A DNA stretch of 35,142 bases from the IMG/VR virus record IMGVR_UViG_2526164668_000014; one strand, given 5' to 3'. The notes beneath the pieces are model-generated. The model was given only the letters and a program-made list of their open reading frames with translations. It did no database searches and was not told the DNA's origin. This stretch comes from a virus (lineage: Duplodnaviria; Heunggongvirae; Uroviricota; Caudoviricetes). Both the position numbers and the translations under genes were made by a program. Each line of letters begins with the position of its first letter. Position 1 is the stretch's first letter. Below are positions 9,917 to 18,410 of the stretch, one piece after another.

Positions 9917-10215
9917 AAAATTCCTTAATACTGATAACTTGGCGCACTATACACACGTTCCTGAAGAAAGCTATAGTTTTTTGATGGGGTTGAAGATGGC
10001 TGGATGTCTAAAATAAACATTGCTTCATATGTTCAACTATGCGTTAATGATTGCGTCGGTTTGAAGAACAGACGATATACGAAGTAGTTTACTAAAGCAG
10101 TTCTCATTTCAGGTGTTATTCACTTATTCCTTCTTTGAGTCTCTCCAATTAAGTACGAAGTCGTTTCTGTTATGCAAACCATTTATGCCGAAAGGCTCAA
10201 GTTAAGGAATGTAGA

Positions 10216-10431
10216 ATGTCAAATAAAATGACTGGTTTAGTAAAATGGTTTAACGCTGATAAAGGTTTCGGCTTTATTTCTCCTGTTGATGGTAGTAAAG
10301 ATGTGTTTGTGCATTTTTCTGCGATTCAGAATGATAATTATCGAACCTTATTTGAAGGTCAAAAGGTTACCTTCTCTATAGAGAGTGGTGCTAAAGGTCC
10401 TGCAGCAGCAAATGTCATCATTACTGATTAA
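10216..10431 (+). CDS. cspB: Cold-shock protein CspB
   Basis: 71 aa [37 protein letters not shown]...; long upstream leader typical of cold-shock genes. Confidence 0.9.
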
Positions 10432-10713
10432 AATTCATCGCTCGTCTGTATACGATAACGAAGAAGGCTGATGCCTGAGTAGAGATACGGACAGAGTAGT
10501 GAATATTGGATCTCTTTAATAAAAAGTAAGGAGGTCCAATACATGAAACAATGGCTAGCATATTTGGCAAAATCTTAATCAGGAAAAGTATGCTAACCAT
10601 TGTGGTGAAGTGCAGGTTTGCTGCATGAATAGTTTTACAGCAGAAGCTAACTGCTGGCATGGCAAAACAAAGTGCGTAAGTGGATGACTCCCACAAAAAG
10701 CACCACAATCTCA

Positions 10714-10794: not shown

Positions 10795-10965
10795 TCAGGC
10801 TACAGCTTTAAGATTTGTCTGGAATACTTTGTTGCAATGAGGGCAGATCAAAAGGGCACCTTTTTGTACTCTTGAAAAACTGTGTTCTGACTCTTGGGTG
10901 CAGTTTGGGCAGGAACATTTAACGAGATAATTACGGCGTGATTTTGAGTTTTTACGTTCTGACAT
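10795..10965 (-). CDS. YdfK/YnaE-like small zinc-ribbon protein
   Basis: MSERKNSKSRRNYLVKCSCPNCTQ...CPHCNKVF with two CxxC pairs; SD AGGAAA before this ATG; an upstream ATG at 11016 would give 73 aa. Confidence 0.65.
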   Translation of the reverse strand: MSERKNSKSRRNYLVKCSCPNCTQESEHSFSRVQKGALLICPHCNKVFQTNLKAVA

Positions 10966-11716: not shown

Positions 11717-12740
<1,024 letters not shown>

Positions 12741-13101
12741 GGTAATATTAAATCGGAACATTTACATCGCGGAATGTAAAATTTGAATAAAAAGGACTCT
12801 TCCATGAGCCAAAATTCCTGAAATCTTAAGGGTAAGATAAAAGGTCTTAATCAGAATGACACGTTTTATTAATAAATAAAGCTATTCTTTCATTGCTGTG
12901 TTTTTCTTTACAAAAGTAATCCTTGCTATGGGTGGTTAATCATGCGTTAATGGTGTTCTGGTTTGTTACAAATTTATCTGAAGCAGTCATTGTTATAATT
13001 TTATTATTTGTACCTCTTGAGATTTCCTTGTTGGTTTTTCTCTCTGATATTTTTTTCGGACCATTCTGCCCAAGGGCTAATTTCTTCAAAAGGTAATAAT
13101 T

Positions 13102-13314
13102 ATGTCTAACAAAATGACTGGTTTAGTGAAATGGTTTAACCCTGAAAAAGGTTTTGGTTTCATCACGCCGAAAGATGGCAGCAAAGATGTGTTTGTCCAT
13201 TTCTCAGCAATTCAGAGCAACGATTTCAAAACATTAACTGAGAATCAGGAAGTTGAATTTGGTATTGAGAACGGACCTAAAGGTCCTGCCGCTGTTCATG
13301 TAGTGGCGCTTTGA
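13102..13314 (+). CDS. cspI: Cold-shock protein CspI
   Basis: 70 aa [37 protein letters not shown]... Confidence 0.9.
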
Positions 13315-13402
13315 GGTAGACAATATTACAAACCATATTCACTTTAGATGCCCGTGTTGTCATGGTTCCCAGTATAGAACATCATCTTTTGATGTTTCTG
13401 AC

Positions 13403-13513
13403 ATGAATCCTTTCGGGGCAAAATGTATCTTTTGTAAATCAATGATGATTACATTTGATAATATTTCACAATACTTAAATGCCAGCCGTCTGTCGTTGGA
13501 TTTAAAAAAGTGA
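13403..13513 (+). CDS. YnfN-like small zinc-ribbon ORF (start uncertain)
   Basis: Frame open from 13304 encodes ...RCPCCHGSQYRTSSFDVSDMNPFGAKCIFCKS...; first in-frame ATG is at 13403, after the first Cys pair. Confidence 0.35.
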   Translation: MNPFGAKCIFCKSMMITFDNISQYLNASRLSLDLKK

Positions 13514-13521
13514 AAATGAAG

Positions 13522-13541
13522 GCTCCTTCGGGAGCTTTTTT
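13522..13541 (+). terminator. Rho-independent terminator
   Basis: GCTCC-TTCG-GGAGC hairpin followed by TTTTTTG. Confidence 0.5.
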
Positions 13542-13585
13542 GCTTGGTGTCTATTCGATGGATACTCACATACTACGGTAACATC

Positions 13586-13816
13586 ATGAAAAAAATCATA
13601 GTTTTTTTTAACTCTGAACCAGCAGTGGTAGTGCCAGCGATGACTGGAGTTAACACCATCATGCGTGAATATCCAAATGGCGAAAAAACACACCTTACTG
13701 TAATGGCCGCAGGGTTTCCATCTCTGACCGGAGATCATAAAGTCATTTATGTAGCCGCGGATCGACATGTTACTTCAGAAGAAATTCTGGAAGCAGCAAT
13801 AAGGCTCTTGAGTTGA
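13586..13816 (+). CDS. Hypothetical small protein (76 aa)
   Basis: ORF MKKIIVFFNSEPAVVVPAMTG... downstream of the terminator; no strong SD. Confidence 0.4.
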   Translation: MKKIIVFFNSEPAVVVPAMTGVNTIMREYPNGEKTHLTVMAAGFPSLTGDHKVIYVAADRHVTSEEILEAAIRLLS

Positions 13817-13987
13817 TTTGATGCTATTGCATTGATAATTCAGGAAAATTCTCTTTGTCTGTTTGTGTAAAATTTAGACTATCGTATGTTGATTATTGCG
13901 ATGTTTCATCTTATCTTTTACACGTTTGCACCATATAATCGACTTACTGTGTAACTGGAAAGTCATAACAGACTAAAAGAGGAAATG

Positions 13988-14161
13988 ATGAATATTGAAG
14001 ACTTAAAAACAAAAGCAGAAGCAGATATTTCTGAATATATAACAAAAAAAATTATTGAACTTAAGAAAAAGACCGGGAAAGAAGTTACCAGTATTCAGTT
14101 TACCGCACGGGAAAAAATGACGGGTCTTGAAAGCTATGATGTCAAGATTAATTTAATCTGA
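13988..14161 (+). CDS. gnsB: GnsB (GnsA/GnsB family small protein)
   Basis: Hand-translated 57-aa ORF MNIEDLKTKAEADISEYITKKIIELKKKTGKEVTSIQFTAREKMTGLESYDVKINLI, below the ORF-track cutoff; an extra in-frame ATG at 13985. Confidence 0.8.
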   Translation: MNIEDLKTKAEADISEYITKKIIELKKKTGKEVTSIQFTAREKMTGLESYDVKINLI

Positions 14162-14312
14162 TGTATTCAATAATAAAATTTATCCATAAACCTCGTTTTT
14201 ACGGGGTTTTGTTATATTTGAATGGTTCCGAATATCTAAATCACAATTGTTGATGGTTTTTATTAAACCAATGCAGTCCGGCTCAGGAGTGAGAGAAGCC
14301 GGACGTTATGGT

Positions 14313-14744
14313 TTAGCGTGGTAAGATCTGTGTAGTTTTCTGGATGCTTTCAGTAATTTTCTGGATGCTTTCAGTAAATAGTAATGAGTTATCAAAGGCA
14401 TAGTAATATCTTTGGTGTTCCTGGATATTTGTAACCCATCGGAAAACTCCTGCTTTAGCAAGATTTTCCCTGTATTGTTGAAATGTGATTTCTTTTGATT
14501 TCAACTTATTATAGGAGGTCTCTATAAGATGTTTGTTTCTGGAGAATTTAACATTTACGACCTTTTTGAGTCCTTTTACTAACACTATGTTGTCGTTTTC
14601 TAACACAATGTGAATATTATCTGTGGCTAAATAGTAAATATAAAGTGAGACATTGTGACGTTTTAGCTCAGAATAAAATAATTCACAGTTTAAATCTTTA
14701 CGCACTTGATCGAATATTTCTTTAAAAATGGCAGCCTGAGCCAT
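14313..14744 (-). CDS. ydfO: YdfO (DUF1398) protein with a 7-codon C-terminal duplication
   Basis: [33 protein letters not shown]...; 143 aa versus a remembered 136 aa for K-12. Confidence 0.85.
14336..14377. repeat. Perfect 21-bp tandem duplication inside ydfO
   Basis: TTTTCTGGATGCTTTCAGTAA occurs twice in tandem, encoding [14 protein letters not shown]. Confidence 0.9.
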
Positions 14745-15044
14745 TGGTAAACCTTCCATGTGATACGATGGCGCGTAGTTAGCATTATCGTGTTTATTGT
14801 TTCAATCTGGTCTGACCTCTTTGTGTTTTGTTGATGATTTATGTCAAATATTAAGCCTGTTTTTAATGAATAGTGTTGATTGCGTAACAAAATTGAGCCT
14901 TGCTGGCATCCAGGAGGGATATGCAACCGACAGATGTATGTAAGGTCGATGTACTCAAACTTTCATACTTTTCCTCTTTTATGCAGTAAGATTTGAAGTA
15001 ATATTTTAACCGCTAGATGACGAGCAAACGCATGGAGCGACAAA

Positions 15045-15251
15045 ATGAATAAAGAACAATCTGCTGATGAACTCTCGTTGGATGTGATTCGTGTAAAAAA
15101 TATGCTTAATAGCACCATTTCTATGAGTTACCCGGATGTTGTAATTGCATGTATAGAACATCAGGTGTCTCTGGAAGCATTCAGGGCAATTGAGGCAGCG
15201 TTGGTGAAGCACGATAAGAATTCGAAGGATTATTCCCTGGTGGTTGACTGA
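15045..15251 (+). CDS. Hypothetical small protein (YnfO-position ORF)
   Basis: 68-aa [26 protein letters not shown]... Confidence 0.5.
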
Positions 15252-15271
15252 GCACCATAACTGCTAATCAT

Positions 15272-15439
15272 TCAAACTATTTCACCTGTGACAGAGTCAA
15301 TATCGCATTCTGTCACTGTCAGGCTAATACAGAGCTGCAATTCAACTACTGCAATGTCCTCGTAATTAGGTGAATTTACAATATCGTCCTGTTCGGATGC
15401 CGGTTGCATTGCTGAAGATGAGGCATTTATGGTTCGCAT
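15272..15439 (-). CDS. Candidate 55-aa ORF convergent with the previous gene
   Basis: Hand-translated MRTINASSSAMQPASEQDDIVNSPNYEDIAVVELQLCISLTVTECDIDSVTGEIV; SD-like GAGGGG before the ATG. Confidence 0.3.
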   Translation of the reverse strand: MRTINASSSAMQPASEQDDIVNSPNYEDIAVVELQLCISLTVTECDIDSVTGEIV

Positions 15440-15627
15440 ATTTTCCCCTCATGCTCGTCAGTCCTGTGCGTAGGAAGAAACAGGACACTCACACTAATTT
15501 GTGTGGGCATGCTGTGATGTCCTTCTGAATTATTCCTATGCCATTATGTAAAGCGCTGTATCAGATGCTCATCACGGCTGTCAGGCTGTCAGGCTGTCGG
15601 GTCCTCCCGGTGGGGGCCCCTGCCACG

Positions 15628-15639
15628 GGGCGGGAGCGT
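15628..15639. other. Candidate cosN cohesive-end site
   Basis: ACG-GGGCGGGAGCGT-CGCGG, GC-rich with partial dyad symmetry, resembles remembered lambda cosN GGGCGGCGACCT in its CGCGG context; about 175 bp upstream of the terminase small subunit. Confidence 0.5.
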
Positions 15640-15813
15640 CGCGGAAAAAGGCTAGTTTTTGAAATTTCATCCGTCATCACCACTACTGTAATAGATTGAT
15701 ATTACAGTATTTTTATTTTTGTGGTGTCGATTTTGATTGTTTTTTGTTCATCACTAACACCGTTTGCCTAAAGTCGTTCGCAAGATGCATGTTTAAAACA
15801 TTCTGGAGCGGGT

Positions 15814-16308
15814 ATGGATCGAGAGTTAAAAAATCTGACGCTGAATATCAGTCAATTGGCGGCACTGTCAGGTGTACATCGCCAGACTGCTGCGGCAAGG
15901 CTGCAAAATCTACCCGTTGCAGGGGGGCATGAAAGCAACCTCAAGCTTTATCGGGTGGTTGATATTGTGTCGGCATTTCTGGCATTACCACCGCCGGTTG
16001 CAGAAGGCGAAATGGACGCACATGAGCGCAAAGCCTGGTATCAGTCTGAACGTGAGCGTCTTAAGTTCGAACAGGAAACGGCACAACTCATTCCGGCCAG
16101 TGATGTCAGACGGGAGTTTGCCATCTGGGCAAAAGCGGTCGTGCAGGTGCTGGAGACATTACCGGATATTCTTGAACGTGACTGCGGTCTGCAGCCTGCC
16201 GCTGTGAGCCGTGTTCAGTCCATTATTGATGATCTGCGCGATCAGATAGCCCTGCGGGTGACTGAAGCAGGTGCGGATGATGAGGAGGAATTACAGCAGG
16301 AGGAGTAA
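15814..16308 (+). CDS. Terminase small subunit (Nu1/NohA-like)
   Basis: 164 aa; N-terminal HTH (LNISQLAALSGVHRQTAAARL), acidic C-terminus; stop overlaps the large-subunit ATG. Confidence 0.85.
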   Translation: MDRELKNLTLNISQLAALSGVHRQTAAARLQNLPVAGGHESNLKLYRVVDIVSAFLALPPPVAEGEMDAHERKAWYQSERERLKFEQETAQLIPASDVRREFAIWAKAVVQVLETLPDILERDCGLQPAAVSRVQSIIDDLRDQIALRVTEAGADDEEELQQEE

Positions 16309-18410
16309 TGCTGAATCAGGAAACCGCAAAGGCAGCACGAACCGATTCAGGTTATATCCTTCGCGCACCGAGACGAATGCGGGTTGCTGATGCCGTTGCT
16401 CAGTATATGCGGGTGCCCATGGGGGCAGGGAACTCAGTCCCGTGGGATCCGCTGGTGGCACCGTATGTTATTGAGCCTATGAACTGCCTGGCCTCGCGTG
16501 AATACGACGCAGTGATATTTGTTGGCCCGGCACGAACCGGCAAGACTATCGGCCTGATTGACGGCTGGGTGATTTACAACGTGATTTGCGATCCTGCTGA
16601 TATGCTGATCATTCAGATGACGGAGGAAAAAGCCCGCGAACACTCCAAAAAACGACTCGCCAGAACGTTTCGCGTCAGCCCGGAAGTGGTCAGTCGCCTG
16701 AGTCCGAACAAAAATGACAACAACGTTTATGACAGAACATTCCTTGCTGGCAACTACCTGAAAATCGGCTGGCCGTCAGTCAATATCATGTCTTCATCAG
16801 ATTATAAATGCGTGGCGCTGACGGATTATGACCGTTTTCCGGAAGATATTGATGGTGAGGGGGATGCCTTCTCTCTTGCCTCAAAACGTACCACCACATT
16901 TATGTCCAGTGGTATGACGCTTGTGGAGAGTTCCCCCGGCAGGGATGTGAAGGATGTGAAATGGCGACGGACTTCACCGCATGAGGCTCCACCAACCACG
17001 GGGATCCTGTCGCTCTATAACCGTGGCGATCGCCGTCGCTGGTACTGGCCCTGTCCACACTGTGGTGAGTATTTTCAGCCCTGCGGCGATGTGGTTGCTG
17101 GTTTCCGTGATATTGCCGATCCTGTGCTGGCAAGTGAGGCGGCTTATATTCAGTGTCCTTCCTGTTCAGGACGGATTTTGCCTGAACAAAAACGCGAGCT
17201 GAACGGACGTGGGGTCTGGTTACGGGATGGTGAATCCATCAATGCAGATGGCAGTCGTTATGGTGATCCCCGGCGTTCACGTATTGCGTCATTCTGGATG
17301 GAGGGTCCGGCAGCTGCTTATCAGACACTCTCGCAACTCGTTTACAAACTGCTTACTGCAGAACAGGAATACGAGACAACCGGAAGTGAAGAGACACTCA
17401 AGACGGTTATCAATACCGACTGGGGATTACCTTATCTTCCCCGCGCCAGCATGGAGCAACGAAAAAGTGAATTGCTTGAGCAGCGGGCAGAGCCAGTTCC
17501 TTCCCGCAGTGTGCCGGATGGCGTTAATTTCCTTGTGGCGACAGTGGATGTGCAGGCGGGACGTCATCGCCGTTTTGTGGTTCAGGTAACGGGCTATGGC
17601 AGCCGTGGCGAACGCTGGATTATTGATCGTTACAACATCACGCAGTCATTGCGCGGTGACAGCGACGGGGAGAGCCAGCGAATTGATCCGGCCAGCTATC
17701 CGGAAGACTGGGATGTCCTGCTGACGGATGTTTTTCATAAAAGCTGGCCGCTGGCCTCCGCCCCTTCTCAACAAATGCGACTGATGGCAATGGCGGTGGA
17801 CTCCGGCGGTGAAGACGGGGTCACTGATAATGCCTATAAATTCTGGCGTCGTTGCCGTCGTGATGGCCTTGGTAAACGTATTTACCTGTTTAAGGGCGAC
17901 AGCATCCGGCGAGCAAAACTGATCACCCGTACATTCCCTGATAACACCGGACGAACGGGCCGACGGGCGCAGGCCGCAGGTGATGTGCCGCTCTGGCTTC
18001 TTCAGACGGATGCCCTGAAAGACCGGGTGAATAACGCGTTATGGCGTGACTCGCCAGGTCCCGGCTATGTGCATTTCCCTGACTGGCTGGGGAGCTGGTT
18101 TTACGACGAACTGACGTATGAAGAGCGGAGCAGTGACGGGAAATGGAGTAAGCCGGGTCGCGGTGCCAACGAAGCTTTTGACCTGATGGTGTATGCCGAG
18201 GCTCTGGTCATTCTGCATGGATACGAAAAGATCCGCTGGCCGGATGCACCGGAGTGGGCGAGCCGGGAAACCTGGCTGGAGTGTGTCCCGGACAGTACCG
18301 AACCGTCACCCTCACCGGAACCGGTACCCACGCCTGTTAAAAAACAAAAACGGAAGAAAACAGTAACTGACGATGTTAACCCCTGGCTGACTTCCGGAGG
18401 ATGGTTATGA
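16308..18410 (+). CDS. Terminase large subunit (gpA family)
   Basis: 700 aa; Walker A-like GPARTGKT; Cys cluster CPHCGEYF...CPSCSGRI. Confidence 0.9.
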   Translation: MLNQETAKAARTDSGYILRAPRRMRVADAVAQYMRVPMGAGNSVPWDPLVAPYVIEPMNCLASREYDAVIFVGPARTGKTIGLIDGWVIYNVICDPADMLIIQMTEEKAREHSKKRLARTFRVSPEVVSRLSPNKNDNNVYDRTFLAGNYLKIGWPSVNIMSSSDYKCVALTDYDRFPEDIDGEGDAFSLASKRTTTFMSSGMTLVESSPGRDVKDVKWRRTSPHEAPPTTGILSLYNRGDRRRWYWPCPHCGEYFQPCGDVVAGFRDIADPVLASEAAYIQCPSCSGRILPEQKRELNGRGVWLRDGESINADGSRYGDPRRSRIASFWMEGPAAAYQTLSQLVYKLLTAEQEYETTGSEETLKTVINTDWGLPYLPRASMEQRKSELLEQRAEPVPSRSVPDGVNFLVATVDVQAGRHRRFVVQVTGYGSRGERWIIDRYNITQSLRGDSDGESQRIDPASYPEDWDVLLTDVFHKSWPLASAPSQQMRLMAMAVDSGGEDGVTDNAYKFWRRCRRDGLGKRIYLFKGDSIRRAKLITRTFPDNTGRTGRRAQAAGDVPLWLLQTDALKDRVNNALWRDSPGPGYVHFPDWLGSWFYDELTYEERSSDGKWSKPGRGANEAFDLMVYAEALVILHGYEKIRWPDAPEWASRETWLECVPDSTEPSPSPEPVPTPVKKQKRKKTVTDDVNPWLTSGGWL

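Follow-up and report, generated by a model that had tools for sequence, protein, structure and literature searches.

The cargo island described here lies between the spanin genes and the cohesive-end site (cos) of an Escherichia coli lambdoid prophage of the Qin/Tritos type, on the 35,142-nucleotide virus record IMGVR_UViG_2526164668_000014, the whole of which is called the window. The island contains cspI, ymcF/ynfQ, ynfR, ynfN, gnsB, a DUF1398 gene of the ydfO/ybcV/lambda p78 family, and a homologue of ybcW/lambda p79. We read it as two accessory (moron) modules of named genes that occur independently in related prophages and respond to host regulators, namely a cold-shock cassette (module A) and the lambda p78/p79 pair (module B), and we regard a further 55-aa open reading frame (ORF) beside cos as non-coding. 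The probability that we attach to this reading is about 0.8. The island is thus an ordinary, already annotated accessory region whose gene identities were known, and as found it matters little, being common among E. coli lambdoid prophages. An earlier note on this DNA had expected undescribed functions here, anti-phage functions among them.

Gene content and distribution of the island

The 2.8-kb segment 13000-15800 is identical (100% DNA identity) to the chromosomes of E. coli O157:H7 493/89, C3, C7, and OkiPb01675. Phage Tritos of the adherent-invasive strain LF82, a functional phage with the same gene set and only small sequence differences, is 98.8% identical over 94% of this region. Of 5,426 complete E. 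coli genomes, 440 carry 80% or more of the region and 3,384 carry at least some part of it. The Qin prophage of K-12 carries the same genes in the same order and orientation (cspI-ynfQ-ynfR-ynfN-gnsB-ydfO), past essQ-ydfR-rrrQ-rzpQ/rzoQ, with CspI, YnfQ, and YnfR identical in sequence and GnsB differing at one residue. Unlike Qin, the prophage in the window is undecayed, with terminase and portal genes following the island; its ynfN is intact (76 aa, with a run of eight T) whereas the Qin copy has seven T and a 51-aa annotation; its DUF1398 gene holds a 21-bp duplication; and the ybcW/lambda p79 homologue stands where Qin has ynfO (DUF3950). Toward cos, window positions 14353-15397 share about 89% DNA identity with phage lambda 47061-48090.

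All of the ORFs listed in the earlier note are present at this place, downstream of the spanins and upstream of cos, but its "YnfN-like" and "76-aa" ORFs are one and the same gene, ynfN, and the list omitted or mislabelled the 62-aa YmcF-like protein and lacked the 21-aa ynfR. The interval that it gave, 13544-15440, excludes cspI and ymcF/ynfQ, which the claim names. Its description of the ORFs as uncharacterised or below annotation cutoffs was overstated, as every one except the 55-aa ORF is annotated in RefSeq; nor are the functions undescribed in the sense intended, since cspI, ymcF/ynfQ, ynfR, ynfN, gnsB, the DUF1398 gene, and ybcW are all named and several have an experimental literature. 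The features of the island and its flanks are collected in Table 1.

Table 1. Features of the island and its surroundings in the window (nt, nucleotides; TRF, Tandem Repeats Finder; MFE, minimum free energy)
Feature	Coordinates	Strand	Basis and remarks
Lysis genes essD, ydfR, rrrQ, rzpQ	rzpQ 12243-12740	+	RefSeq; upstream of the island
Embedded lipoprotein ORF (spanin)	12418-12690		Inside rzpQ
cspA-type thermoregulator (cspI 5' leader and coding region)	12957-13341	+	Rfam RF01766
cspI, cold-shock protein, 70 aa	13102-13314	+	RefSeq; Pfam CSD; identical to K-12 CspI
ymcF/ynfQ, YmcF-like, 62 aa, ATT start	13325-13513	+	RefSeq; PF23641
ynfR, 21 aa	13516-13581	+	RefSeq; identical to K-12 YnfR
Intrinsic terminator between ymcF and ynfN, AAGGCUCC-UUCG-GGAGCUUU then U run	13518-13541	+	-12.5 kcal/mol, z = -2.2
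ynfN, 76 aa	13586-13816	+	RefSeq; phrog_3425
Candidate gnsB promoter, perfect -10 hexamer TATAAT	13934-13939	+	Script scan, inferred
gnsB, 57 aa	13988-14161	+	RefSeq; PF08178
Intrinsic terminator past gnsB	14188-14215	+	Centroid hairpin -10.8 kcal/mol, whole-stretch MFE -11.1, z = -2.3; U run next
Strong hairpin just past the DUF1398 stop, terminator-like, weak U tract	14276-14304	-	-21.7 kcal/mol, z = -6.0
DUF1398 protein (YdfO/YbcV/lambda p78 family), 143 aa	14313-14744	-	RefSeq; PF07166
PdhR box ATCTGGTCTGACCTCTT	14805-14821	+	Exact match to DLP12 ybcV/ybcW site (PMC7660256)
FNR box TGTTGATGATTTATGTCAAATATT	14829-14852	+	Exact match to ChIP-chip target upstream of DLP12 ybcW (PMC1802558)
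ybcW/lambda p79 homologue, 68 aa	15045-15251	+	RefSeq "hypothetical"; phrog_657
55-aa ORF, not conserved as coding	15272-15439	-	Absent from RefSeq annotation
Conserved inverted repeat GTGACAGA...TCTGTCAC ending CTGTCAGG, just past the ybcW stop	15285-15323		-17 kcal/mol, z = -2.2
Three tandem CTGTCRGG octamers just left of cosN	15576-15601	+	TRF period 8, 2.9 copies
cosN region GGGCGGGAGCGT, lambda-like left cohesive end	15628-15639	+	Extent inferred
DUF1441 small terminase	15814-16308	+	RefSeq
Large terminase	16308-18410	+	RefSeq

The coding status of the ORFs was assessed by comparison with homologues of graded divergence, counting substitutions at each codon position. Four genes behave as protein-coding sequences, with no indels and an excess of changes at the third position: example counts for positions 1/2/3 are 12/6/39 for ynfN, 9/5/30 for gnsB, and 15/14/40 for the DUF1398 gene, and ybcW, whose length is also kept, gives 7/6/11.

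The cold-shock cassette

The first module begins with a full-length match to the cspA thermoregulator model (114.2 bits against a gathering score of 78, E = 1e-28), the only RNA family detected at a permissive Rfam threshold in 12700-15900. CspI has the features of the CspA family, that is, a single cold-shock domain of about 70 aa (PF00313, 1.6e-31, residues 5-69) and a long, structured 5' leader of the cspA type. K-12 cspI is reported to be induced on temperature downshift (Wang et al. 1999, as cited in PMC7406224). The YmcF-like protein matches PF23641 over its full length (6.9e-32) and carries two cysteine pairs in a CxxC...CxxC arrangement, CPCC and CIFC. Its ATT start lies 10 nt past the cspI stop, and an ATT start is kept 10-11 nt past the csp stop in all eight homologous loci examined, in three of which gene callers had overlooked the ORF.

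An intrinsic terminator follows ymcF. A stem with a T-run stands at the corresponding position of the K-12 cspG locus, the Citrobacter farmeri chromosome, and other prophage cassettes, while the loops vary between loci (TTCG, CTCGT, TTTG, TTAT, TTTTT, and TTTAA) and the stem includes one compensatory pair, T-A to C-G. This statement on covariation comes from hairpins read directly, the MAFFT alignment of the terminator regions being out of register. The only other canonical hairpin with a U-run is the one past gnsB. Strong hairpins lacking a U-run lie past the DUF1398 gene, where none of 200 shuffled sequences folds as well, and past ybcW; scanning for terminators and folding gave none past cspI or ynfN. 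The earlier description of the genes as separated by terminators is therefore right for ymcF and gnsB and wrong for cspI and ynfN.

The start codon of ynfR sits at the foot of the hairpin past ymcF, and the first nine or so codons of the gene are the hairpin itself, so that transcription has to pass the terminator for any mRNA to encode YnfR. Cold shock strongly induces the SPA-tagged protein (PMC6001520). The ynfR ORF was found only in the Qin-type cassette of E. coli and is missing from the Citrobacter and other cassettes compared; the ORF of YmcE, the protein annotated at the K-12 cspG locus, is not conserved in those cassettes either. YnfR (MKAPSGAFLL…) and the N-terminus of K-12 YmcE (…RLPRGAFFI…; locus L003, 1848-1900) are translations of the same hairpin in the same frame. 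Two points are new here, namely the conservation of the terminator past ymcF and the fact that YnfR and the beginning of YmcE are encoded by its hairpin. For annotation this means that both proteins begin with translated terminator sequence, which puts the role of YmcE as a dedicated antitoxin in doubt and weakens the case made for it.

The next gene, ynfN, belongs to phrog_3425 (7e-54). An alignment of 17 sequences, Citrobacter proteins among them, shows no variation at K3, F7, F8, and N9, and the N-terminal 25 residues as a whole are conserved among relatives in Citrobacter and other enterobacteria. The T8 run at 13602-13609, which holds the ATG in frame, occurs in 19 loci, including O157:H7 493/89 and Tritos; T7 occurs only in K-12 Qin (locus L004), where it shifts the ATG out of frame and thus accounts for the 51-aa K-12 annotation. 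It is a new, if minor, point that ynfN is really a gene of 76 aa and that the K-12 reference copy is frameshifted. A confident AlphaFold2 (AF2) model of YnfN (pLDDT 87.6) shows five strands and a C-terminal helix, and a sequence search of the PDB returned nothing meaningful. YnfN was also considered as a homologue of YmcE; this was rejected, as the two show no sequence similarity and the DNA from ymcF to gns cannot be aligned across the loci.

GnsB falls in the GnsA/GnsB family (PF08178, 5.1e-35; PDB GnsA 4XO2, 2.7e-20), for which GnsA structures 4XO1 and 4XO2 are available. Overexpression of GnsA or GnsB increases unsaturated fatty acids and rescues cold-sensitive or fabA6 strains; for K-12 gnsB, the increase and the suppression of fabA6(Ts) and secG-null are credited to Sugai 2001.

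That the genes are expressed in a lysogen is shown by the RNA-seq data for Tritos in LF82, reassigned by coordinates. There, cspI and gnsB are both very highly expressed, far above the prophage background, and ynfN is about 10- to 30-fold lower. A gnsB transcript so far above that of ynfN calls for a separate gnsB promoter, and the succession of high cspI, low ynfN, and high gnsB fits attenuation at the terminator together with such a promoter. From these data the Tritos paper itself classes cspI, cspB, and one neighbouring gene as morons (PMC9928086). In its Table 1 and S1/S4 the gene labels are shifted by one in the region that corresponds to window positions 13100-15300: LF82_0907 "YnfN" (174 bp) is gnsB by coordinates, LF82_2580 "YbcV" in S1 is the 207-bp ybcW, and LF82_3578 "cold-shock protein" is the 156-bp ynfN. 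In K-12 exposed to AZT, cspI, ynfQ, and ynfN are induced 6.5-, 5.9-, and 5.8-fold, and their dependence on SspA is 38-, 42-, and 51-fold (PMC11228462). In long-term stationary phase, K-12 cspI and ynfN increase together, and loss of cspI lowers competitive survival (PMC7406224).

Module A is a paralogue of the K-12 cspG-ymcF-ymcE-gnsA locus. The cspI-ymcF portion is 74% identical in DNA to K-12 cspG-ymcF, and gnsB is 74% identical to gnsA; the K-12 locus has the same ATT start and the same terminator straight past ymcF. The middle does not align: a 194-nt spacer annotated as ymcE in K-12 is replaced in the window by ynfR and ynfN, and the two are unrelated except for the hairpin-encoded peptide. 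A Citrobacter chromosomal locus that includes ynfN is a closer match to the cassette than the K-12 cspG locus is. In Citrobacter farmeri the series CSD-YmcF-YnfN-Gns is chromosomal and lies between genes for a GGDEF protein, a DUF1543 protein, and a molybdopterin oxidoreductase. In other genomes the four genes stand behind different lysis cassettes and ahead of HNH/Terminase_4 or DUF1441/GpA terminases, and a 60%-identical YnfN likewise stands behind a csp-ymcF pair. These varied phage contexts, together with the Citrobacter chromosome, indicate that the cassette moves as a unit, a clear case of a host stress operon passing whole between chromosomes and unrelated phage backbones.

On this evidence the segment 12957-14215 would be a captured enterobacterial cold-shock cassette. 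CspI, under its thermoregulator leader, would act as an RNA chaperone, and the YmcF-like protein would be translated from the conserved ATT codon. The terminator would pass only a minority of transcripts into ynfR and ynfN, and gnsB would be transcribed mainly from its own promoter, its product raising the share of unsaturated fatty acids when overproduced. These products may together benefit the lysogen at low temperature and during long-term stationary phase. CspA-family proteins are reportedly RNA-melting transcription antiterminators. A speculative idea, to which we give only limited credence, is that csp, ymcF, the terminator, and ynfN form a self-gated antitermination switch, in which Csp melts the terminator downstream of its own gene; YnfR and YnfN would then become plentiful only after Csp has built up in the cold, and YnfR and the YmcE N-terminus would be by-products.

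The lambda p78/p79 pair and the DNA beside cos

Module B corresponds to the right end of lambda (bor, lambdap78, lambdap79) and to ybcV-ybcW of DLP12, with about 89% DNA identity over the DUF1398 gene, the spacer, ybcW, and 145 bp beyond. The divergent layout, the PdhR and FNR boxes, and the position just before cos are the same. In contrast to lambda, the island is without bor, and a DUF1441 small terminase replaces the lambda cos and the Nu1-type small terminase. The lambda p78 annotation (locus L085, 1143-1676) also differs, starting at a GTG that precedes the conserved MAQ… start by 34 codons, so that the coding sequence runs across both regulatory boxes; it is probably over-extended. The "head protein" label that RefSeq and PHROGs attach to lambda p78 has no visible support.

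The DUF1398 protein matches PF07166 over the whole profile (1.7e-43, positions 1-119 of 119) and YdfO as solved by nuclear magnetic resonance (PDB 2HH8, 6.6e-64). Stress induces YdfO, and greater resistance to oxidative stress has been reported on its overexpression. A 21-bp tandem duplication in the gene (14332-14377, TRF period 21) adds seven residues, ESIQKIT, near the C-terminus; the resulting 143-aa form is common, one cluster at 90% identity holding 1,577 member sequences.

The product of ybcW matches phrog_657 (1.5e-46) and is 90% identical to lambda p79, with the length of 68 aa, the divergent orientation to the DUF1398 gene, and the place just before cos that mark this family. Its differences from homologues, most of those from lambda p79 included, cluster in residues 2-17 (window 15045-15100), which differ heavily, one version reading MHKDQYTDAPSQEQVRV; from residue 18 onward the homologues are near-invariant. 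An exhaustive phmmer search of 1.8 billion representatives with YbcW found only relatives about 50% identical or closer, and a sequence search of the PDB found nothing meaningful. Most of the seemingly divergent YbcW matches look frameshifted and noisy. Hundreds of such "divergent" homologues of YbcW and DUF1398 come from ENA contigs of about 3.5 kb, which are probably error-rich assemblies of lambda control DNA that inflate the apparent diversity of the families in metagenome protein databases.

The 300-bp spacer between the two genes contains one PdhR box and one FNR box, each a single match in the window where none is expected. The lambda copy of the PdhR box has one mismatch, and that of the FNR box is identical. 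In a pdhR mutant, the mRNAs of ybcV and ybcW fall 10-fold and 8.9-fold (PMC7660256). In LF82 inside macrophages compared with growth in LB, ybcW rises by a log2 fold change of 4.94 (about 30-fold), and ybcV stays low. Shuffled sequence gave more matches to the sigma-70 consensus than the DNA itself did, and the scans pointed to no convincing promoter of either ybcW or the DUF1398 gene. The boxes suggest that the host sensors of pyruvate and oxygen drive these genes, and 14313-15323 would accordingly represent a lambda p78/p79 pair transcribed divergently under host control.

A link to defence does exist at this locus, but it runs opposite to the direction that had been anticipated. Escapers of lambda-vir from the Vulcan NIR-NADase all delete lambdap79 by recombination with Qin, co-expression of p79 and Vulcan is toxic, and lambda p79 activates Vulcan (bioRxiv 10.64898/2026.09.04.749371). 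It follows that the family of the 68-aa protein is sensed by defence and is not known to provide it. YbcW/p79 may serve the phage in host takeover or counter-defence, with Vulcan as the guard against it, and the variability of its first 17 residues, far greater than that of the rest, could be the result of selection by Vulcan or another such sensor. Given the toxicity on co-expression, lysogens with this p79 homologue may be affected by Vulcan-type systems, an effect that could shape which prophages and defence systems share a cell.

The convergent 55-aa ORF listed in the earlier note is spurious. The ORF is intact only in near-identical genomes and is broken in every homologue of 88-96% identity, by 1-nt indels in lambda, mEp460_ev081, L036, and L076 and, in L007, by two deletions of 7 nt and 1 nt. 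Its substitutions are not concentrated at the third codon position (5/7/5 and 2/6/6 at positions 1/2/3). As the DNA is conserved and the reading frame is not, the ORF is not protein-coding, a further minor new point. Its match to phrog_4035 reflects ORF calls in near-identical phages, and that family is probably not a gene. What is kept, in lambda and other homologues, is the inverted repeat that the ORF overlaps. The ORF would thus be non-coding DNA beside cos, the repeat sharing with the DNA next to cosN the CTGTCAGG motif that recurs there.

The octamer CTGTCRGG has nine matches in the window, against 1.8 expected for the whole of it, and five of these fall in 15316-15872: three in tandem 27-50 nt left of cosN, one in the inverted repeat (15316-15323), and one in the small terminase gene (15865-15872). 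The octamers may be binding sites for terminase or an accessory protein. The cosN site is placed by the end of the linear Tritos record at the position equivalent to 15627 and the start of phage cdtI at 15628; its sequence resembles the lambda GGGCGGCGACCT.

Cargo variation in the slot and alternative readings

The claim that this position is a cargo hotspot is borne out. Of 80 IMG/VR prophage loci whose small terminase is 100% identical, 58 could be delimited by a lysozyme match as well, and between lysozyme and terminase these 58 show at least 18 sequence classes, 1.25-3.5 kb in length, the class of the window being the longest. Other classes contain Rz/Rz1 alone, or in addition Bor, Rha, KilA-N, an IS element, proteins of 230, 112, and 95 aa of no described family, or parts of the island. 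Some loci are mosaic, having cspI-gnsB and ybcW without the DUF1398 gene, and others have DUF1398 and ybcW without the cold-shock genes. The variability and dispensability expected of morons are thus seen in prophages with an identical small terminase that lack some or all of the island genes, as well as in the non-essentiality of lambda p78 (by CRISPR interference, CRISPRi, and in the literature) and of p79 (in the literature). For promoters and terminators of their own, the modules have the terminators past ymcF and gnsB and the boxes for host regulators, while promoter scans were weak and the expression data from a lysogen are those of Tritos.

Several points weigh against reading the island as two host-responsive morons. 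The expression data derive from Tritos, K-12 Qin, and DLP12 and not from the prophage in the window. YnfN, DUF1398, and YbcW have no known biochemical activity: the YnfN model had no fold match among solved and viral predicted structures, and the model of the DUF1398 protein (pLDDT 51) was too poor for a structure search, its alignment being shallow with all listed relatives at least 74% identical. The lipid effect of GnsB is an overexpression phenotype. Late transcription from pR' runs across all of the island genes, so that some expression in lytic growth is expected and a lytic-cycle role is possible. Finally, a CRISPRi screen scored lambda p79 as essential, which in our opinion is a polar effect on late transcription.

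An undescribed anti-phage function, such as superinfection exclusion or abortive infection, was the expectation of the earlier note and is the alternative that survives best, improbable as it is. The slot is truly a cargo hotspot, three of the proteins lack a known activity, and cold-shock domains also occur in defence contexts, as weak matches in the Pfam and PADLOC libraries to the TOTE S1/CSD domain and the retron Se72 effector and the CSD_V match illustrate. PADLOC, run on all eight ORFs, nevertheless returned only that generic CSD_V match to CspI (3e-15) and two weak, implausible ones to the DUF1398 protein, REase_II (2e-4) and Csx23 (7e-3). CspI is identical to a K-12 cold-shock protein, the cassette has housekeeping neighbours on the Citrobacter chromosome, the genes answer to cold, to stress, and to PdhR and FNR and not to infection, and the p79 homologue is a trigger of defence and not a defence protein. 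The claim therefore finds no support here.

It is more improbable still that gnsB and ynfN form a toxin-antitoxin (TA) pair that stabilises the prophage, after the model proposed for GnsA-YmcE. The Pfam/RefSeq family name, "GnsA/GnsB toxin of toxin-antitoxin system", invites this view, ymcE-gnsA is among the listed type II TA pairs of E. coli, and ynfN lies upstream of gns where ymcE sits. The arrangement is nevertheless not that of a type II pair, with a gap of 171 nt between ynfN and gnsB and a candidate promoter within it. In LF82 the RNA of gnsB exceeds that of ynfN about 10- to 80-fold in raw reads and the cells are unharmed, and K-12 carries an intact gnsB beside a frameshifted ynfN. YnfN and YmcE are unrelated in sequence, the YmcE ORF, which starts as translated terminator hairpin, is not conserved outside E. 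coli, and GnsA and GnsB have repeatedly served as multicopy suppressors that rescue growth.

That the genes are ordinary late-operon genes for lysis, packaging, or virion assembly is the least probable view: despite their location, with lysis genes on one side, terminase genes on the other, and late transcription running across, the "head protein" label of phrog_413 (lambda p78), and the CRISPRi score of p79, some or all of them are missing from prophages whose small terminase is identical, lambda p78 is non-essential and Vulcan escapers without p79 still form plaques, the DUF1398 gene opposes late transcription and has paralogues at non-phage chromosomal sites such as ycgX, and the cold-shock cassette is chromosomal in Citrobacter.

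Two further observations concern the surroundings of the moron modules. The alternative cargo of the slot includes a 230-aa minus-strand ORF (loci L020 and L042) and smaller proteins of 112 aa (L011) and 95-172 aa (L044); these have no Pfam or PADLOC match, PADLOC giving nothing convincing for the three proteins, and they are less described than anything in the island of the window. At window positions 10055-10447 and about 10795-10965, a second cspA-thermoregulator match of 158.8 bits covers cspB, which precedes the holin gene, and the opposite strand carries ynfU, a small zinc-binding gene, so that two cold-shock csp genes, cspB and cspI, flank the lysis cassette of this prophage.

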